Assembly (NCBI GenBank): GCA_964617525.1
Contig: CAZTWG010000022.1
Span: 1-7,528 of the forward strand
Direction of reading: 5' to 3'
From: an uncultured Gammaproteobacteria bacterium
GTDB taxonomy: Bacteria > Patescibacteriota > Patescibacteriia > UBA2591 > UBA6264
Length of the DNA stretch: 7,528 bases
Of the stretch, positions 1,232 to 6,663 are shown in pieces. The stretch's first letter is position 1, and each line of letters begins with the position of its first letter. The notes below the pieces were generated by a model that ran no database searches, was not told where the DNA came from, and saw only the letters and a program-made list of their open reading frames with translations. The translations under genes and the position numbers were made by a program.

Positions 1232-2554
1232 ATGATTTATCCTCTTGTATTTTTTTCTATATTCTTTATTTGGTTAAGCTGGAATTATCAAAAATGGTCA
1301 TTATTTTTGATTTTAGCAATTTTGCCATCTTACCAGATTAGATTTCAGGCTTTTGGGATTCCTTTAACTTTTCTGGAAGTTTTGATTTTAATTTTATTCG
1401 CTGTTTGGTTTGTTAAAAAAATAAAACACAAACAATATCCTATTTTTGATTACAAAAAGTTAGGAATATGGTTTTGGTTACTTCTGTCATGGCTTCTAAT
1501 CTCAACAATAGTGATGTTTGTGTCCCCTGATCTACGAGCTGGAGCTGGCGTTTGGAAGGCATATTTTTTAGAACCAATTTTATTTCTTGTTGTGTTTTTA
1601 GATATAATAAGAAATAAAAAGGATTTAATATTGGCGATTAAAGCTTTGGTCTTCCCCGGTTTATTGGTTGTTTTTTATACTTTTTATCAAAAAATTATTG
1701 GTCAAGGGGTTTGGAGCACTGAAGTTTGGGGACAGCCAAAGATTTTAAGAGCAACTGGGTTATTCCCTCATCCTAATTTTCTGGGTTTATATATTGGCCC
1801 TTTATTCATATTGGGATTGGGATATATATTTTTGAGTTTCAAAAAAAATATTTTATCTATTATTAAAATTTTAGTCTTTTCAATATTATTTTTGGGTTCT
1901 CTTGTTTTTGCTAGGTCTGAAGGAGCAATCGTAGCTATTTTTATCGCTTTATTCTTTTGCGCCATGTTTTACAAACCAATCAGAAAATGGGCCTTAGTCT
2001 TGGTTTTAGTTTCTATTTTGTTTTTATCGTCTTCTTCTGCCCCGCGCCATTATTTAACAGAAAAAATATTTTTTCAAGACCTTTCCGGACGTTTGAGAAT
2101 TAATATTTGGAAAGGTGCTTTAGAAATGTTAAAAGAAAAGCCTATTTTAGGCGTAGGATTAAATGGGTATCGCGCTTTGGCCCCTCAATATCAAAAACGT
2201 TATTACGACAAAGATACTCAAGAATTAATTTCAGTTGAAACTCATCCTTATCCGCATAATTTGTTTTTAACGATTTGGTTGGAATTAGGGTTGTTGGGTT
2301 TAATTATTTTTTTCTTGATTCTTTTCCAATTTTTTAAACAAGGTCTTAAAAATTTTAAGAAGGAACCGATTTTAATTGGCTCAATTATGGGTGCGATGAT
2401 GGTTATCTTAATCCATGGATTAGTTGATACCCCATATTTTAAAAATGATTTATCAATTCTTTTTTGTATAATTATTGGAATGATGATAATTATATCACGG
2501 AGAGGTACCGAAGTGGTCATAACGGCATCGCCTCGAAAGCGATTGGTCCCGTAA
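1232..2554 (+). CDS. O-antigen ligase / Wzy_C-family polytopic membrane protein
   Basis: 440-aa multi-TM ORF. ARSEGAIVAIFIALFF and the periplasmic-loop segment ETHPYPHNLFLTIWLELGLLGLIIFF match by eye the RS..A and H.HN.(F/Y)L..l.E.G..G signatures of the O-antigen ligase/polymerase (Wzy_C) domain. There is no stop before the tRNA: the last 56 nt (2499-2554, peptide RRGTEVVITASPRKRLVP) read through the tRNA-Ser gene, so the true C-terminus is uncertain. Confidence 0.7.
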   Translation: MIYPLVFFSIFFIWLSWNYQKWSLFLILAILPSYQIRFQAFGIPLTFLEVLILILFAVWFVKKIKHKQYPIFDYKKLGIWFWLLLSWLLISTIVMFVSPDLRAGAGVWKAYFLEPILFLVVFLDIIRNKKDLILAIKALVFPGLLVVFYTFYQKIIGQGVWSTEVWGQPKILRATGLFPHPNFLGLYIGPLFILGLGYIFLSFKKNILSIIKILVFSILFLGSLVFARSEGAIVAIFIALFFCAMFYKPIRKWALVLVLVSILFLSSSSAPRHYLTEKIFFQDLSGRLRINIWKGALEMLKEKPILGVGLNGYRALAPQYQKRYYDKDTQELISVETHPYPHNLFLTIWLELGLLGLIIFFLILFQFFKQGLKNFKKEPILIGSIMGAMMVILIHGLVDTPYFKNDLSILFCIIIGMMIIISRRGTEVVITASPRKRLVP

Positions 2555-2589
2555 GGGGCACGTGGGTTCGAATCCCACCCTCTCCGCCA
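2499..2589 (+). tRNA. tRNA-Ser (anticodon CGA), class II with long variable arm, CCA encoded
   Basis: Cloverleaf folded by eye. Acceptor GGAGAGG (2499-2505) pairs with CCTCTCC (2579-2585). D stem CCG/CGG. Anticodon stem ATCGC/GCGAT with loop CTCGAAA (anticodon CGA at 2534-2536). Long variable arm (TGGTCCCGTAAGGGGCAC). T arm GTGGG-TTCGAAT-CCCAC. Discriminator G2586 and CCA at 2587-2589. Confidence 0.9.
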
Positions 2590-2657
2590 TTAAACCTCGC
2601 TAACGCTTCGCTTTGATTGGCTATATGCACTACACTTATATACTCAAAAGTTTAAAA
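2584..2657 (+). repeat. Left copy of imperfect direct repeat (att-like): last 6 nt of tRNA-Ser plus downstream sequence including the GIY-YIG gene start
   Basis: CCGCCATTAAAC (2584-2595) is identical to 6279-6290. After an indel (17 nt here vs 5 nt in the right copy), 2613-2657 matches 6296-6340 at 43 of 45 positions by hand alignment, including a 32-nt perfect run TTGATTGGCTATATGCACTACACTTATATACT. Confidence 0.85.
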
Positions 2658-2807
2658 CAAGACGAGGCCATTTGTATTGACTATACCAATGATTTGAAAT
2701 CAAGATTAACACAATATAATTTAAAACACACTGGTTATAGTAATAAATATTTACCATTGGGAGTAGAAAGCTATTTTGTGTTTGCAGAACAATTGCGCGC
2801 CCTCTGA
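2625..2807 (+). pseudogene. Truncated/degenerate small stand-alone GIY-YIG nuclease gene
   Basis: MHYTYILKSLKQDEAICIDYTNDLKSRLTQYN... aligns by eye to the small GIY-YIG (UPF0213/URI-type) pattern hY.YIL.s..d..lYIGyTnDLkrRl.eHN. However YIG reads CID and EHN reads QYN. The ORF stops at 2805-2807, about 14 nt after composition switches to GC-rich near 2791 and before the conserved C-terminal Glu-containing region. The ORF track starts it at TTG 2613; ATG 2625 fits the family N-terminus better. Confidence 0.6.
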
Positions 2808-2959
2808 AAAAATTCTAAAAAGGAAAGGGAAAATTTCTGATCAGTCCCTCTCTCCAAGTGTTCGGGCGATGCCACAGGGCTTTGCTCGGATGGCTCGGCA
2901 TTCCTTCTCCAGACCCTTTCCTGCCAAGCCGTCCTCGCTTCTGGTAGCGGGCAGGCAAT
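2791..2959. other. GC-rich non-coding block with short inverted termini (MITE-like unit or structured RNA; unassigned)
   Basis: Composition jumps abruptly inside the GIY-YIG ORF. The left edge ATTGCGCGCCCTC (2792-2804) matches the reverse complement of the right edge (ATTGCCTGCCCGC, from 2947-2959) at 10 of 13 positions. It contains local hairpins, e.g. CCTGCC (2920-2925) with GGCAGG (2950-2955). The + strand ORF 2776-2979 and a 49-codon minus-strand ORF show no recognisable protein features. Confidence 0.35.
2921..2959 (+). repeat. Left arm of 39-nt GC-rich inverted repeat bracketing the HTH/ATPase genes
   Basis: CTGCCAAGCCGTCCTCGCTTCTGGTAGCGGGCAGGCAAT matches the reverse complement of 6178-6216 (CTGCCAAGCCATCCTCGCTTTGGGAAGCAGGCGGGCAAT) at 33 of 39 positions by hand count. 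If the arms paired as RNA, that gives 33 Watson-Crick pairs, 2 G-U pairs and 4 mismatches. Weaker similarity extends outward (CCAGACCC at 2910-2917 vs reverse complement CCAGTCCC). Confidence 0.85.
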
Positions 2960-2997
2960 TATTTACAAAGACGCAATAACTTAGTATCATTTTAGTA

Positions 2998-3050: not shown

Positions 3051-3248
3051 ATGGCAAACATTGCTGACGACATACGAAAGGCTCGAAAGAAAAAAGGGGC
3101 TATCGCTGGGCAAGCTCGCCCACGAGGCGGGCGTTGCATGCAACACGGTTGTGAAGATTGAATTAGAGAACAAAACCCCGAACATTAAAATTTTTGCGGG
3201 GTTGTCGCAAATGCATTAGATGTTTCCGTTAATGAGTTAATCAATTAG
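3051..3248 (+). pseudogene. XRE/Cro-type helix-turn-helix regulator with interrupted reading frame
   Basis: No single frame encodes the whole domain. Frame of ATG 3051 gives MANIADDIRKARKKKG and then hits TGA at 3159-3161. The frame of ORF 2998-3219 gives LSLGKLAHEAGVACNTVVKIELENKTPNIKIFAG, the helix-turn-helix core. The first frame then resumes at about 3198 with VVANALDVSVNELIN and stop 3246-3248. The switches fall in the A6G4 run (3091-3099) and the G4 run (3198-3201). Total length 198 nt is a multiple of 3. The stop lies 3 nt before the ATG of the 974-aa ORF. Confidence 0.65.
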
Positions 3249-3251
3249 CTT

Positions 3252-6176
3252 ATGGAAAACCCAAAATTTGAAGCACAATTCGCGGAAAGAAAAAAAACGC
3301 TCGAGTCTTCGCGAAAAGAAATTAACGAATTTCTCAAACAGGAAACTTTAGACCAGAGAGACAGGCTTAGGTTGACGCGTGTTTTGCAACTTGTAGAACG
3401 TTACCGACCGGAACGGGAAGGAGAGGGAGAAAAAGTTAATAAGTGGAAAACATATCTCGAAAGTGTTTATCGTCTTCTGCCAAATAGAAGGAAATCACAA
3501 AAACCGATTCAGAATATTTCTGCTCGCTCATATTTGCTTGCAGAAAAAACCATCGCCTCTTTACGCGATTTGAGGCACGTAGATTTTCAACTGGAAGAAG
3601 AAAGTGGTTTTTCGGAAGATGAAGTTTTAAATCAAGAAAGACCAAAAGAAGTAGAGCGTGAAGAAACGCTAGATACATCACTTACTCTTGAATACGAAAA
3701 GAAAAATTGGGGCGTAGAACGAATTTGTCTTGATGGTATACAAAATCACTTACCGTCCGACTCGAAAGGTGAACATGTTTGGGTACGATGTTTGGTTGAC
3801 GGCAAGTGGGTTACGCTCGATGAAGCAAGACAGAGAAAGGACAAAATAGAAGCTGTAAGATTTGCCGATGACGGCGTTGGATTTGATGTCAAAAATCTGA
3901 CTCTTTTGTACTCCACAAAATCGGGGGAAGAAGAGTCAAGCGGGCAGTTTGGAGAAGGCATGAAAATGATGGCCGCCGCCGCTCTTCGCGAAGGACTGGA
4001 GCCGGAGATGGAATCGCAAACATGGCGGGCAAAGCCAACCCCCAAAGAGGTTAAACTTTACGATACGCGACATAAAAAAGAGCAAGGCATTCAGCAACTT
4101 TCTTTTAAAGTTGAGCATCTGACGGGAGAACCAATGATTGGATCTCGTACCACTTTTAATAGGCCAACAGAGGCATTTGTTGACGAGCTAATGCAAATTG
4201 AGAAAAAGGTTTTGGCTTTGCGCGAAAACTATCGTCCCGCTTTTGTGGGAAGTACTGGAGAAATTGTTGACCGAGAATCCGGAGGATTATTTGTAAAGGG
4301 TATTTATGTGGCTGGAAAGAAAACGCTATTTTCTTATAACTTTGAAGATGTAGAAACTAACAGAGACCGCAATACAATAGTTTCTGAGGGCATAGAGCGA
4401 AGAATTGCTAGAATAGTCAGAGAAATTTCTGACAAGCGACTCGTTAAAACAATGTTGCAGAAAAGTATTTTGGAGCCCGGTGCAGTAGAAAGTTCGTATT
4501 ATAATTTTGAAGCTGAGTACCCGAGTGTTTGGATTGACGGGTTCCACGAAGCATTTGGTGGAGATGCAGTATTGGATACGGGTTTCAAAATCCCAGAGGC
4601 ATTAAACGACAAGCCGATTAACAAAGTCAAATTGCCCTCAGGTATGGCAAATTTACTTTTACGCGCAGGAATAAAAACTGACCGAGAAGCAACACCTGAT
4701 TTTTGGGATGAGACGATACCAACATCTTTGACTCTTGAATACGGAAAAGATATTTGGAACGAAGAAAGAATCTTACTCGACGCTGTACAAAATCATTTAC
4801 CGCATGACTCTGGTGGGTCAACCATTGGCTTACGTTTCAAAACGAAAGATGGGAAATGGCACCCGTTTTCTGAGTTACCAGATACTCCTGACCAACAGGT
4901 TCAGGCACTAAAAATTTATGATGATGGACGGGGATATGATTCCCGTTTGCTTGGCTTTTTCTACTCAACGAAAGGAGCAAGCGAAAGCACAGGAAAATTT
5001 GGTGAGGGGTTAAAAATGCTTTGTGTTGCTTCGCTACGCAAAGGTGTTGATATGACCTTGTGTTCACAAAACTGGTCTGCCAAACCGCGCGCGCTTAAGC
5101 AAGAAATAGACGGTGAAGAAATTGACCAGCTTGTTTTTGACGTAACGCACGCTGTTAAGAAACGGGAAATGGACGACGACAAAGGCATTTACCAAAGCAG
5201 TTCGACTACATTTTCAAACCCGACATTGGAATTGTTGCAGGAGTTTCGCCAAATAAACAAGAAAGTTTTGGCAATAGAAAAAACCAAGCCAGTCGAAAAA
5301 ACGCCAAACGGAGACGTCCTTTCGCTTGAAGGTGGAATGGTATATGTTCGCGAATTACTTATCCCTGGCGACCACAATTTGCTTTTTACTTATCATTTAC
5401 CAAGATTAGAGATTAAGAACAGAGACAGAAGTTTTGTTGATCAGCAAGAGCTTACTCCAGCCATCGCACAAATTTGGTCGCAAACCGAAAACCCCGAAGT
5501 TATAAAAAGCTTTTTGTTCAAAGCAAATCTTGAAGCACAAAAAGGTGGTGGAAAAGATAAAATAGAGTTTTCTATGGATTTTTCGCCAAAAGATAGAGAA
5601 AACTGGAAAAAGATTTTTGAGGAGATTTTTGGCGAGGATACGGCAATTCGTGATATGCGATCTGAAGATTATGACGCTATGCAACAGAATAAACACGTTG
5701 GTTTGGATCTTGTATCTTTTCCGTCGTCTGTTTATCGTGTTTTGCAAAGGCTGGGACTGCCAACTTATGAATCTCGTCTACAAGAAATGACTGACGTTGA
5801 GCATATTCCCGATGAGGAACTGACAGCCGAAGAGAAAGCGTTGATGGAAGTTTTGACGGCGATTGACGAATACCTACCGAACAATCGCCAATCTGATATA
5901 CACGTATACAAACGCAAGTCCGCGGGCCAAAAAGTTGCCGCCGGATATTCCGATGGGGTAAGCATTCACCTTTTGCGCGAGACATTAACAGATTTTACTC
6001 GCGCTGCTGATGTATATGTCCATGAAAAAACTCATCACAATACTGGTGGCTCGCAAGATGCAAGTTCTGATTTTAGAGATTATCTTACCTTCGCGTTGGG
6101 GAAACTTGCGCTTGATCAATTAAAAAAAGTCAGGCCGGATTTAATAAAGCCAGAAGCGCAAGGGAGCGAGCTATAG
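3252..6176 (+). CDS. 974-aa protein: N-terminal charged helical region, two tandem GHKL (Bergerat-fold) ATPase-like modules, C-terminal HExxH zincin-like domain
   Basis: Long uninterrupted ORF, so coding status is very likely. Module 1 (aa 137-476) and module 2 (aa 486-838) align along their whole length. Each carries LD.(I/V)QNHLP.D (N-box-like; D161/N165 and D510/N514). Each carries a G1-box-like motif (DDGVGF at 206-211, DDGRGY at 557-562). Each carries YSTK......G(Q/K)FGEG(M/L)KM (G2-box-like; 220-239 and 571-589) and (R/S)TTF(N/S).P. The tail has ...AAGYSDGVSIHLLRETL...VYVHEKTHH (HEKTH = aa 924-928, nt 6021-6035), resembling SprT/DUF45/ImmA-type minimal zincins. Domain calls are by eye; function is unknown. 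Confidence 0.75.
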   Translation: MENPKFEAQFAERKKTLESSRKEINEFLKQETLDQRDRLRLTRVLQLVERYRPEREGEGEKVNKWKTYLESVYRLLPNRRKSQKPIQNISARSYLLAEKTIASLRDLRHVDFQLEEESGFSEDEVLNQERPKEVEREETLDTSLTLEYEKKNWGVERICLDGIQNHLPSDSKGEHVWVRCLVDGKWVTLDEARQRKDKIEAVRFADDGVGFDVKNLTLLYSTKSGEEESSGQFGEGMKMMAAAALREGLEPEMESQTWRAKPTPKEVKLYDTRHKKEQGIQQLSFKVEHLTGEPMIGSRTTFNRPTEAFVDELMQIEKKVLALRENYRPAFVGSTGEIVDRESGGLFVKGIYVAGKKTLFSYNFEDVETNRDRNTIVSEGIERRIARIVREISDKRLVKTMLQKSILEPGAVESSYYNFEAEYPSVWIDGFHEAFGGDAVLDTGFKIPEALNDKPINKVKLPSGMANLLLRAGIKTDREATPDFWDETIPTSLTLEYGKDIWNEERILLDAVQNHLPHDSGGSTIGLRFKTKDGKWHPFSELPDTPDQQVQALKIYDDGRGYDSRLLGFFYSTKGASESTGKFGEGLKMLCVASLRKGVDMTLCSQNWSAKPRALKQEIDGEEIDQLVFDVTHAVKKREMDDDKGIYQSSSTTFSNPTLELLQEFRQINKKVLAIEKTKPVEKTPNGDVLSLEGGMVYVRELLIPGDHNLLFTYHLPRLEIKNRDRSFVDQQELTPAIAQIWSQTENPEVIKSFLFKANLEAQKGGGKDKIEFSMDFSPKDRENWKKIFEEIFGEDTAIRDMRSEDYDAMQQNKHVGLDLVSFPSSVYRVLQRLGLPTYESRLQEMTDVEHIPDEELTAEEKALMEVLTAIDEYLPNNRQSDIHVYKRKSAGQKVAAGYSDGVSIHLLRETLTDFTRAADVYVHEKTHHNTGGSQDASSDFRDYLTFALGKLALDQLKKVRPDLIKPEAQGSEL

Positions 6177-6177
6177 T

Positions 6178-6216
6178 ATTGCCCGCCTGCTTCCCAAAGC
6201 GAGGATGGCTTGGCAG
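6178..6216 (-). repeat. Right arm of the 39-nt GC-rich inverted repeat
   Basis: ATTGCCCGCCTGCTTCCCAAAGCGAGGATGGCTTGGCAG starts 2 nt after the stop of the 974-aa ORF and is the inverted partner of 2921-2959 (33/39). It can also fold on itself (CCCGC...GCGGG, 6182-6220) and is followed by a second small hairpin (CTGGGATTATCCCTCAG, 6222-6238). No U-tract follows. Confidence 0.85.
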
Positions 6217-6278
6217 CGGGACTGGGATTATCCCTCAGGATCGTTAACGAAAAAGGTTAGAATTTCATTCAAATAATA

Positions 6279-6340
6279 CCGCCATTAAACTTTGCTTGAT
6301 TGGCTATATGCACTACACTTATATACTTAAAATTTTAAAA
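6279..6340 (+). repeat. Right copy of the imperfect direct repeat (att-like)
   Basis: CCGCCATTAAAC, then a 5-nt spacer, then TTGATTGGCTATATGCACTACACTTATATACTTAAAATTTTAAAA. See the left copy at 2584-2657. Only CCGCCA of the tRNA is duplicated; the sequence just upstream (GGTTAGAATTTC, 6255-6266) only faintly recalls a T-arm. Confidence 0.85.
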
Positions 6341-6634: not shown

Positions 6635-6663
6635 TTGACAAATACCCCATGGGGGTATATAAT
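6635..6663 (+). promoter_or_regulatory. Sigma-70-type promoter, TTGACA - 17 nt - TATAAT
   Basis: TTGACA at 6635-6640 and TATAAT at 6658-6663, with an exact 17-nt spacer, about 30 nt upstream of the ATG at 6693. Both hexamers match consensus. Confidence 0.7.
6642..6658. promoter_or_regulatory. Palindromic operator candidate ATACCCC-ATG-GGGGTAT overlapping the promoter spacer and -10
   Basis: Perfect 7-bp inverted repeat (6642-6648 and 6652-6658) around a 3-nt centre. The C/G tract flanked by AT-rich arms is the architecture described for CsoR/RcnR-family operators, and it sits directly upstream of a gene of that family. Confidence 0.6.

Follow-up and report, generated by a model that had tools for sequence, protein, structure and literature searches.

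The window analysed here is a stretch of 7,528 nucleotides from a metagenomic contig (CAZTWG010000022.1), and its main feature is a single open reading frame (ORF) of 974 aa on the forward strand (3252-6176, with an ATG start in the ORF listing of the window). The ORF lies, together with the remains of a small regulator gene, on an islet of raised G+C content (GC) behind a tRNA gene. An initial annotation had read the encoded protein as a tandem of two GHKL ATPase modules fused to a C-terminal zincin with an HExxH motif, had been unable to assign this architecture to a described family and had supposed a role in defence or in conflicts between mobile elements. As far as the architecture alone is concerned, we consider it highly probable that two Bergerat-fold GHKL modules and one minimal zincin are combined in one polypeptide.

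The 974-residue protein and its domains

An identical protein (P0001) has been called on a 28.8-kb metagenome contig in ENA, and the nearest relatives, P0002 and P0003 (loci L074-L079), are 91% and 88% identical to it. The pairwise ratios of nonsynonymous to synonymous substitution rates (dN/dS) of the gene amount to 0.058 against the 91%-identity relative and 0.029 against the 88%-identity relative, and because of these values of 0.03-0.06 we regard the ORF as constrained and functional.

All motifs that had been quoted for the protein were found at the residue numbers given for them: the N-boxes LDGIQNHLPSD (aa 160-170) and LDAVQNHLPHD (aa 509-519), the G1 motifs DDGVGF (aa 206-211) and DDGRGY (aa 557-562), the G2 or lid segments STK...GQFGEGMKM (aa 221-239) and STK...GKFGEGLKM (aa 572-589), and HEKTHH in the zincin tail (aa 924-929). 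In addition, the protein contains an internal duplication, since aa 137-476 align with aa 486-838 at 34% identity over 362 columns (E = 5e-53), which is far beyond chance. Conservation was examined in an alignment of 75 homologues, reaching down to about 20% identity. Invariant are N165, D206, G208, S221, G231, G234, E235, G236 and K238 in module 1, N514, D519, G559, G584 and E585 in module 2, and E925, H928 and D936 in the tail; D161, D510, D557 and H924 are kept in at least 90% of the homologues. Motifs, duplication and conservation together confirm that a GHKL tandem is followed by a C-terminal HExxH motif.

Module 1 covers residues 137-485 (3660..4706, forward strand) and its paralogue, module 2, residues 486-838 (4707..5765, forward strand). 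In each of them, an ATPase sandwich of about 190 aa is joined to a second subdomain of alpha/beta type, and the set of Bergerat ATP-binding motifs (I-IV) is complete in both. Module 1 possesses N165, motif II in the form D206-x-G208-x-G210, the glycines of the lid (G231xxG234xG236) and G297-S298..T as motif IV. The corresponding residues of module 2 are N514, D557-x-G559-x-G561, G581xxG584xG586 and S650-x-T652. In both second subdomains a Tyr and an Asp-Arg pair are invariant (module 1: Y362 and D372-R373; module 2: Y714 and D725-R726), and their FSYN…NRDR motif is seen in all distant relatives, including the phage proteins. In the transducer domain of GHL ATPases the gamma-phosphate is sensed by a Lys or an Arg; by analogy, the family described here may use the Arg of its Asp-Arg pair for the same purpose. 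The modules are preceded by an N-terminal region (residues 1-136; 3252..3659, forward strand), which AlphaFold2 models as helical with lower confidence. This region is specific to the clade from the candidate phyla radiation (CPR) and does not occur in the single-module or phage forms.

The initial annotation was also right in noticing that the place of the catalytic Glu, four residues ahead of the N-box Asn, is taken by an Asp, namely D161 and D510. The canonical Glu is kept in distant relatives, for instance in Aneurinibacillus with the motif ExxxNSLDA. The general-base position thus always bears a conserved acidic residue, but the clade of the window departs from the canonical Glu.

In Pfam, the window protein scores 22.8 bits with HATPase_c (cut-off 26.4) and 22.3 bits with HATPase_c_3 (cut-off 25), and several of its relatives lie above these thresholds (L072 with 33.1, L030 with 27.5 and L019 with 29.7 bits). 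The sequence of the 974-aa protein by itself had no match in the PDB, and a profile search of the PDB aligned the G1-G2 region with topoisomerase VI-B as a marginal match. The AlphaFold2 model of the full protein has a predicted local distance difference test score (pLDDT) of 84.9 and a predicted template modelling score (pTM) of 0.60. When this model was compared to the PDB with Foldseek, zebrafish TRAP1 was the best match (E = 6e-6, 470 columns, spanning the N-terminal and middle domains). Further matches were the ATPase of human MORC4 (E = 7e-5), many Hsp90 N-domains, PMS1/MutL and the catalytic and ATP-binding domains of histidine kinases, and the probability of the fold matches to TRAP1, MORC4, the Hsp90 N-domain and MutL/PMS1 is about 1.0. 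The claim of a Bergerat fold is thus supported by the AlphaFold model and its Foldseek matches, and by the relatives that pass the Pfam thresholds.

The minimal zincin comprises residues 839-974 (5766..6176 with the stop codon, forward strand) and contains H924-E925-x-x-H928 and the invariant D936. The last 135 residues, modelled alone with AlphaFold2, reach a pLDDT of 94.8. In the model, a helix is followed by a three-stranded sheet (strands 882-887, 898-900 and 904-908), the helix with the HExxH motif (915-930) and a long helix (939-960). Foldseek matched this domain in the PDB with abylysin (E = 0.036) and selecase (E = 0.096), both with a probability of 0.92, and next with BepA, HtpX and an M32 carboxypeptidase; all of the best PDB matches are zincins. 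D936, which is located 8 residues past H928 in the sequence around the HExxH motif, HEKTHHNTGGSQD, is the presumed third zinc ligand. The pattern of this sequence (HE..HH.TG..D) resembles the AIP56/NleC-type HEIVHHVTGSSD, as indicated by a profile search with an E-value of about 1, and might be taken as a lead only.

A conserved His at position +6, the third His of the SprT/WLM type (HExxHx5H), is not present in HEKTHHNTGGSQD. The Pfam families SprT-like and WLM did not match the 974-aa protein, Peptidase_M78 gave no match to it at E<=10, and a search for homologues of the isolated zincin domain yielded nothing but gene fragments. The minimal zincin proposed in the initial annotation is backed by the fold matches to abylysin, selecase, BepA and HtpX and to a SprT-like phage protein; membership in the SprT/WLM or M78 types is not.

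These results also bear on the idea that the protein closes on DNA like MORC, MutL or topoisomerase VI-B and cleaves proteins on DNA in the manner of SprT or Wss1, for instance DNA-protein crosslinks or phage or plasmid proteins attached to DNA. MORC4, MutL/PMS1 and topoisomerase VI-B are indeed among the matches, the zincin part has a weak match to a SprT-like phage protein, at rank 43 of the matches in a viral structure library, and phage copies of the gene stand amid genes for helicase, single-stranded-DNA-binding protein (SSB), ligase and exonuclease. However, no nucleic-acid-binding domain was detected by a Pfam scan of the 974-aa protein, and instead of the third His of SprT/WLM there is an invariant Asp in HEKTHHNTGGSQD; SprT-like and WLM had no match in Pfam. 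Such a function in the processing of DNA-bound proteins is, in our opinion, very unlikely. Larger relatives of 1,343-1,941 aa did not exhibit further informative domains in Pfam either.

The islet and the cassette family

The GC amounts to 39-47% between about 2590 and 6280 and to 20-35% in the flanks (0.42 for the gene versus 0.33 for the flanks). Upstream of this region lies a gene for tRNA-Ser with the anticodon CGA (2499..2589, forward strand; predicted by ARAGORN, 54 bits with the Rfam tRNA model), whose last 6 nt are at the same time the start of the left direct repeat (2584..2657; families D9 and D2). This repeat bounds an insert of roughly 3.7 kb, together with a right direct repeat (6279..6340) that is made up of the tRNA 3' end, a spacer and the first 15 codons of a GIY-YIG ORF. 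The two copies are 62-74 nt long, and the paired segments (2584-2601 versus 6279-6296, and 2613-2657 versus 6296-6340) share 89-96% identity. The GIY-YIG-like ORF follows directly after the tRNA-Ser gene as a truncated fragment of 64 aa (2613..2807, forward strand; 15.7 bits with Pfam GIY-YIG, which is below the threshold). The repetition of its first 15 codons at 6296-6340 suggests that this site had received insertions before or that a GIY-YIG gene takes part in the insertion.

Within the insert, inverted repeats bracket the regulator gene and the 974-aa gene. The left inverted repeat (2795..2963, forward strand) has its full length of about 170 nt and is about 80% identical to the inverted repeats of L076-L078. 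The right one (6178..6222, reverse strand), which has a full length of about 170 nt in the relatives, is cut to about 45 nt, so that the match within the window is restricted to 39 nt with 85% complementarity (2921-2959 versus 6178-6216). The left inverted repeat has a promoter-like sequence at its inner edge, TTTACA-17-TATCAT (2962..2990, forward strand; 10/12 in a consensus scan), which is conserved in L076-L078 and probably drives the regulator gene and the cargo.

The regulator gene (3052..3248, forward strand) belongs to the XRE type of helix-turn-helix (HTH) genes and is degraded to a 73-aa ORF with a weak match to Pfam HTH_3. A three-frame translation and a DNA alignment to the XRE genes of L074 and L076 revealed two frameshifts in A/T runs and a 3-nt deletion in comparison to the intact XRE gene of L076, which encodes 65 aa and belongs to the locus of the 88%-identity relative. 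A homopolymer assembly error may be behind the frameshifts. In L074-L079, an intact XRE gene of 65-68 aa ends 4 nt before the family gene, and near-identical inverted repeats of ~170 nt flank the pair. The element in the window is decayed: it has no recombinase, its XRE gene is broken and its right repeat is shortened. A foreign islet next to a tRNA gene, as described in the initial annotation, is thus well supported by the jump in GC and by the direct and inverted repeats, but the XRE regulator that was thought to be encoded on it is not intact. A perfect sigma-70 consensus (TTGACA-17-TATAAT, 12/12) is located at 6635-6663, upstream of genes for a CsoR-like repressor and a thioredoxin; it is a resident host promoter just outside the insert.

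The inverted repeats define a larger family of cassettes. The 22-nt core of the repeat, GCTCGGAYGGCTYGGCATTCYT, is present on at least 119 metagenome contigs in JGI, and it had no match in viral contigs. On 15 of the contigs two copies of the core face each other at a distance of 1.9-4.2 kb. In the consensus of 114 distinct copies of the inverted repeat, conservation exceeds 90% over a core of about 75 nt. This core contains a hairpin (2880-2950 in the window) with a GC stem of 13 bp, formed by GGACGGCTCGGCA and TGCCGAGCCGTCC, and a C-rich loop of 21 nt. This hairpin has no match in Rfam and could be a recombination site, a structured RNA or a terminator. A plain terminator as the explanation of the inverted-repeat arms was rejected in view of their spacing of 3.2 kb and their conservation across cassettes with different cargo.

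The cargo of the cassettes (loci L083-L162) was annotated in aggregate and by eight spot checks. In at least six cassettes the first gene encodes an HTH protein resembling XRE regulators and C proteins. Among 41 cargo proteins from 13 cassettes there are 8-9 DNA methyltransferases (four N6_N4, three N6, one C5 and one Eco57I-type), and five cargo proteins match the "control protein" of PADLOC. The spot checks identified type IIG-like enzymes and an N4/N6 methyltransferase, and besides these a YcaO/nitroreductase enzyme for ribosomally synthesised and post-translationally modified peptides, a phosphoenolpyruvate-synthase-like enzyme, and a TPR protein together with an HtrA-like protease; redox enzymes are among the cargo as well. 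DNA methyltransferase and restriction-modification (R-M) genes are the most frequent class of cargo in this slot.

A large serine recombinase homologous to that of L076 is encoded just outside one inverted repeat on at least 18 of 80 contigs. In L124 and L158, recombinases that are 95-98% identical to that of L076 are found beside unrelated cargo. Since near-identical recombinases carry different cargo in these loci, the gene of the window is the cargo of a modular element with the layout recombinase, inverted repeat, XRE gene, cargo and inverted repeat. The cassette family may represent a type of element of CPR bacteria that is so far without a description. A 216-aa ORF beside the recombinase gene of L076 was discarded as a gene, because it is nothing but the translated inverted repeat and matches every copy of it.

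The combination of an XRE regulator and an HExxH protease is a well-known module of mobile elements, as in ImmR/ImmA and DdrO/IrrE. One could assume that the zincin acts as an anti-repressor of this kind, cutting the adjacent XRE protein upon a signal from the GHKL part and thereby switching the mobile element on, and the intact XRE gene of the closest relatives, which ends 4 nt before the family gene, would fit this assumption. However, the sister cassettes have an XRE gene in first place too, with R-M systems or other unrelated cargo behind it, which is why we regard XRE as a generic controller of the cassette and not as a specific partner of the protease. Moreover, the XRE gene of the window is frameshifted although the protease gene is intact and constrained, Peptidase_M78 is not matched, and most members of the family have no XRE neighbour. 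The co-occurrence with XRE genes, which the initial annotation had named as a point to check, is not a general feature of the family; it is confined to the nearest subclade (L074-L079). An anti-repressor of the ImmA/IrrE kind therefore has the least to recommend it, and we consider it extremely unlikely.

Distribution of the family and its neighbours

A word-indexed search resulted in 106 clusters, none of them with a functional name, and a search of 1.84 billion representatives with a hidden Markov model found 5,625 at E<=1e-3, 2,918 at E<=1e-10 and 627 at E<=1e-30. Among 185,579 species (one genome per GTDB species), 63 family loci were confirmed, a number that is a lower bound since the scan was made with three peptide patterns. 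The form of the CPR/Patescibacteria, to which the window protein belongs, has the tandem and the N-terminal helical extension and a length of about 970 aa. The form found in Clostridia is about 1,100-1,170 aa long. A Firmicute branch with lengths of about 1,075-1,130 aa is named "ATP-binding protein" in RefSeq and includes copies on megaplasmids. The family also occurs in Bacilli, Omnitrophota, Melainabacteria, Elusimicrobiota and Desulfofundulus, and in many DPANN archaea, where the proteins have mostly 490-560 aa with one module and the zincin. According to the comparison of these forms, one GHKL module with a zincin is the ancestral state, the tandem form arose by duplication, and afterwards the protease was retained by the second module only. 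The tandem module is also found inside giant proteins: P0169 (6,439 aa, residues 2433-3370), P0183 (1,994 aa) and P0148 (1,726 aa).

Across the sequence sources every member is called "hypothetical" or "ATP-binding protein", with no functional name, and the fusion of GHKL and zincin was not found described in the literature. Most family members have weak or faint precomputed matches to PF25856 (MPN635_N), a family label that implies no function; MPN635 is mentioned in the literature solely as a non-essential gene of M. pneumoniae.

Proteins with one module and HExxH are encoded by the Moorella phage MTATph1 and by the SPO1-like Exiguobacterium phage vB_EalM-132. The genes are located amid early genes and genes of DNA metabolism, replication and nucleotide metabolism (helicase, SSB, ligase and exonuclease), and members of the family occur in virulent phages. 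Some of the phage copies have degenerate ATP motifs. The phage family phrog_6077 ("unknown function") matches the window protein in two stretches (E = 1.1e-31, 111 bits) and the phage homologues with E-values of 1e-27 to 1e-36; with its 366 positions it represents one module only and does not cover the zincin. The best structural match anywhere is A0A3G3BWI8 in BFVD, an uncharacterised phage protein of 437 aa (E = 5e-21, TM score 0.75), which is taken to be the protein of vB_EalM-132, judged by its length. It is followed by proteins of Erwinia, Pseudoalteromonas and Edwardsiella phages and of an archaeal filamentous virus, and then by dozens of rIIA proteins with E-values of about 1e-6. The statement that the protein belongs to no described family or named defence system is thus in agreement with the uninformative names and with the absence of any PADLOC family, but the membership in phrog_6077 had been overlooked, as had the forms with a single module and a zincin in DPANN archaea and phages.

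In the light of these relatives, the protein might be an offensive factor of phages or other elements, that is, a GHKL-zincin that takes over or disarms the host, for example by cleaving a defence or regulatory protein, in analogy to the rIIA-type GHKL proteins and the zincins of phages, and the chromosomal copies would then be morons or remnants. The best structural matches, first uncharacterised phage proteins such as A0A3G3BWI8 and then rIIA, would agree with this explanation, as would the membership in phrog_6077 (E = 1e-31) and the position of the single-module HExxH genes in the early and DNA-metabolism regions of the SPO1-like phage and of MTATph1. The rIIA protein itself is described as a GHKL domain followed by a C-terminus that varies, and as acting in counter-defence (PMC7824862). 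However, most cellular copies stand alone amid housekeeping genes with no other phage genes, and they are under strong purifying selection. Some phage copies are degenerate in their ATP motifs. Furthermore, the inverted-repeat core is without a match in viral contigs, and the equivalent slot of the cassettes carries R-M systems, which are protective for their carrier. All in all, an offensive function seems unlikely to us.

Some clades of the family have neighbours of their own. In a DPANN subclade with single-module proteins (L052-L058, L064 and L071) and in L007, a METTL5-like methyltransferase with an NPPF motif is encoded upstream and a protein of ~86 aa downstream; in L007 the methyltransferase gene overlaps the start of the family gene. 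In Clostridia and relatives (L005 and L019-L022) a conserved protein of 114-167 aa ("YSEVLGVLL…KIKYWC") is encoded directly downstream, and it is possible that this is a clade-specific partner.

In the CPR clade, a tRNA gene lies 25-663 nt from the family gene in 7 of 11 independent loci (the window, L011, L012, L013, L015, L018 and L023/L024). Seven different tRNAs are involved. Six of them precede the family gene in the same orientation (Ser-CGA, Leu-CAG, Thr-GGT, Val-GAC, Val-CAC and Ser-GGA), with gaps down to 25-32 nt, and Ser-TGA is downstream and convergent with the family gene. Depending on which density of tRNA genes is assumed, such an adjacency would arise by chance with a probability of 1e-7 to 2e-4. 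It may reflect a targeted mechanism of insertion or the use of tRNA transcription. Neither an integrase nor att-like direct repeats were found around the gene in the seven other tRNA-adjacent loci. At the DNA level, the window's flanks show no similarity to any other family locus, except for the 3' end of the tRNA. L023 (11122-11325) and L024 (11120-11320) contain a direct repeat of 63-65 nt in the stretch that separates the family gene from the convergent tRNA-Ser(TGA) gene; its copies are 94-100% identical and spaced about 139 nt apart.

Proposed function and comparison with known systems

In GHL ATPases such as Hsp90, MutL, MORC and topoisomerase VI-B, the binding of ATP closes two ATPase domains together. 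By analogy, the product of the 974-aa ORF might be a self-contained, ATP-regulated metalloprotease. ATP binding would bring two GHKL modules against each other, within one chain in the tandem forms and by homodimerisation in the single-module relatives, and D161 and D510 would stand in for the general-base Glu. This closure would serve to capture or sense a macromolecular ligand and would gate the zincin, which in turn would cleave a protein target. As an accessory and horizontally mobile gene, it could have its role in the conflict between the cell and mobile elements or phages, for instance in defence or exclusion. Several findings speak for a role in conflict: the XRE-led slot of the sister cassettes, beside near-identical serine recombinases, holds R-M systems, the family is patchy and also present in phages and megaplasmids, and the genes of the CPR clade tend to lie next to tRNA genes. 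VcSduA and the mobile R-M units discussed below can serve as precedents. Taken as a whole package, an ATP-gated protease that serves host-element conflict is a tentative proposal, to which we would give a little less than an even chance.

There are a number of observations that weigh against this proposal. The replacement of the catalytic Glu by Asp may result in slow ATP hydrolysis or in none at all, the window protein itself scores under the Pfam thresholds for HATPase_c and HATPase_c_3, and the matches of the zincin fold are weak in terms of their E-values (0.036-1). PADLOC-DB 2.0 returned 0 families for the 974-aa protein at E<=10. The cassette slot also holds non-defence genes, and sharing this slot is therefore suggestive but not diagnostic. 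For the family loci, in which genes were called by a simple greedy ORF picker, clustering of the ±4 neighbours revealed no family-wide conserved partner in 54 loci. At positions ±1-2, these loci contain 216 genes, most of them with housekeeping functions, and only about 5-8 are defence-like according to Pfam and PADLOC (IetA, PDC-S05, SoFic and a type I S subunit); individual loci have GmrSD or BrnT/A nearby. An enrichment of defence islands around the homologues, another point that the initial annotation had named for checking, is consequently not a feature of the family as a whole. The difference between the GC of the gene and that of its flanks has a median of 0.001 and exceeds 0.05 in only 8 of 61 loci. 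This ameliorated GC and the synteny with the METTL5-like methyltransferase suggest long residence and not rapid turnover. The supposed role in defence or conflict is hence supported indirectly, through the R-M systems in sister cassettes, but neither by a family-wide defence context nor by PADLOC.

Some of these points would rather be expected of a housekeeping protein, in which an Hsp90-like clamp and a protease contribute to protein quality control in the reduced proteostasis networks of CPR bacteria and DPANN archaea, similar to FtsH or Lon. TRAP1 as the top match in the PDB over its N-terminal and middle domains, the frequency of the family in CPR and DPANN genomes, the ameliorated GC and the housekeeping neighbours in most loci, the stable synteny in one Woesearchaeota-like subclade and the strong purifying selection are all compatible with this explanation. 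However, with 63 loci (a lower bound) among 185,579 species the distribution is patchy, close relatives reside at different tRNA loci in different genomes, and the gene is the cargo of a recombinase cassette. There are also copies in virulent phages and on megaplasmids, and neither the C-terminal dimerisation domain of Hsp90 nor a co-chaperone context was detected. A general function in proteostasis is thus quite unlikely.

The proposal of a protease in host-element conflict can be put in a more far-reaching form, according to which the family is a new class of ATP-dependent proteases, where a GHKL clamp instead of an AAA+ ring gates a minimal zincin and which acts as a single-gene immune or exclusion module, or as its phage counterpart, in CPR bacteria, DPANN archaea, Firmicutes and large phages. 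In CPR bacteria it would be carried by a novel serine-recombinase element, whose exchangeable cargo slot is bounded by inverted repeats and controlled by XRE. In this full form we find it doubtful. To our knowledge, ATP-dependent proteolysis in prokaryotes is carried out by AAA+ machines. If the proposal is true, the GHKL clamp with a zincin would be a mechanistically different way of gating a protease, and a widespread one (627 clusters at E<=1e-30 and 2,918 at E<=1e-10). As far as we know, the effectors under the control of GHKL ATPases in conflict systems have so far been nucleases; a protease would then join them. The defence repertoire of CPR bacteria and DPANN archaea is poorly known, and since the family is common in these organisms and is also found in virulent phages, it would be an accessible candidate in the search for defence or counter-defence, by way of its Firmicute or phage homologues. 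The cassette family, with at least 119 copies, R-M-rich cargo and a serine recombinase, would be a hotspot for further conflict genes in uncultivated bacteria.

The window protein shares with the GHL ATPases the Asn of the N-box, DxGxG, the GxFGxG lid (as in Hsp90, MORC and topoisomerase VI-B), motif IV and the second subdomain. It differs from them in having two ATPase modules per chain, Asp instead of Glu and a zincin as C-terminal output, and it lacks a nuclease, a CW domain, a coiled coil and the C-terminal dimerisation domain of Hsp90. In Hsp90/HtpG there is one ATPase per chain and dimerisation takes place via the C-terminus, in contrast to the two modules and the zincin of the window protein, which does not match Pfam HSP90. 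Several Hsp90-like ATPase modules repeated in one chain are known from sacsin. With the sacsin-like ATP-binding repeat of NCBIfam (NF047352), however, the protein scores 18.5 bits and thus below the cut-off of 50, and it differs from sacsin by the absence of DnaJ, HEPN and UBL domains, by its prokaryotic and viral distribution and by the protease output.

With regard to the protease part, the order of sheet and HExxH helix is the same as in other minimal zincins (abylysin, selecase, M48/HtpX/BepA, SprT-like proteins and NleC/AIP56 of family M85). In contrast to these, the presumed third ligand is an Asp, no peptidase family of Pfam is matched, and the domain is fused to an ATPase instead of being free-standing or membrane-embedded. 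A C-terminal HExxH zincin is also present in FtsH. The union of ATPase and protease in one polypeptide, which resembles FtsH and Lon, is a functional analogy without homology, because a GHKL clamp is not an AAA+ hexameric unfoldase. From ImmA/IrrE (COG2856) the family is set apart, since it has no Peptidase_M78 domain and no family-wide XRE neighbour.

Mobile forms of R-M systems have been described that are marked by long inverted repeats, by long duplications of the target and by integration at tRNA genes (Furuta et al. 2010, PMC2853133). The element that carries the gene is similar to these units, as it possesses inverted repeats of ~170 nt, a direct repeat of 62-74 nt at a tRNA gene and a C-protein-like XRE gene in first position. 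Unlike these units, it has a GHKL-zincin as cargo, a hairpin within the inverted repeat and an adjacent large serine recombinase. The prokaryotic MORCs are linked to R-M, helicase or nuclease partners (PMC2292703), whereas the window family has no R-M or helicase linkage and no conserved neighbour in 54 loci when compared with MORC/paraMORC. The phage T4 protein rIIA, with its GHKL domain, variable C-terminus and counter-defence role (PMC7824862), resembles the window protein in the N-terminal GHKL and the variable C-terminal part, and many rIIA models match it at E-values of about 1e-6. Nevertheless, rIIA has no zincin and is membrane-associated with rIIB, and its matches are far weaker than those of the phrog_6077-type phage proteins.

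VcSduA is a single-gene defence system, in which a GHKL ATPase is fused to a Shedu nuclease of the PD-(D/E)xK type (PMC12137116). Both VcSduA and the protein described here are stand-alone genes on mobile DNA with an N-terminal GHKL part that presumably controls a fused C-terminal effector. The protein of the window differs by its metalloprotease effector, its duplicated ATPase, the absence of DUF4263 and of any detection by PADLOC, and its role in defence is putative. The best reading of its architecture is that it extends the known theme of a GHKL ATPase plus a fused effector, which is represented by MutL, MORC/paraMORC, VcSduA and rIIA.

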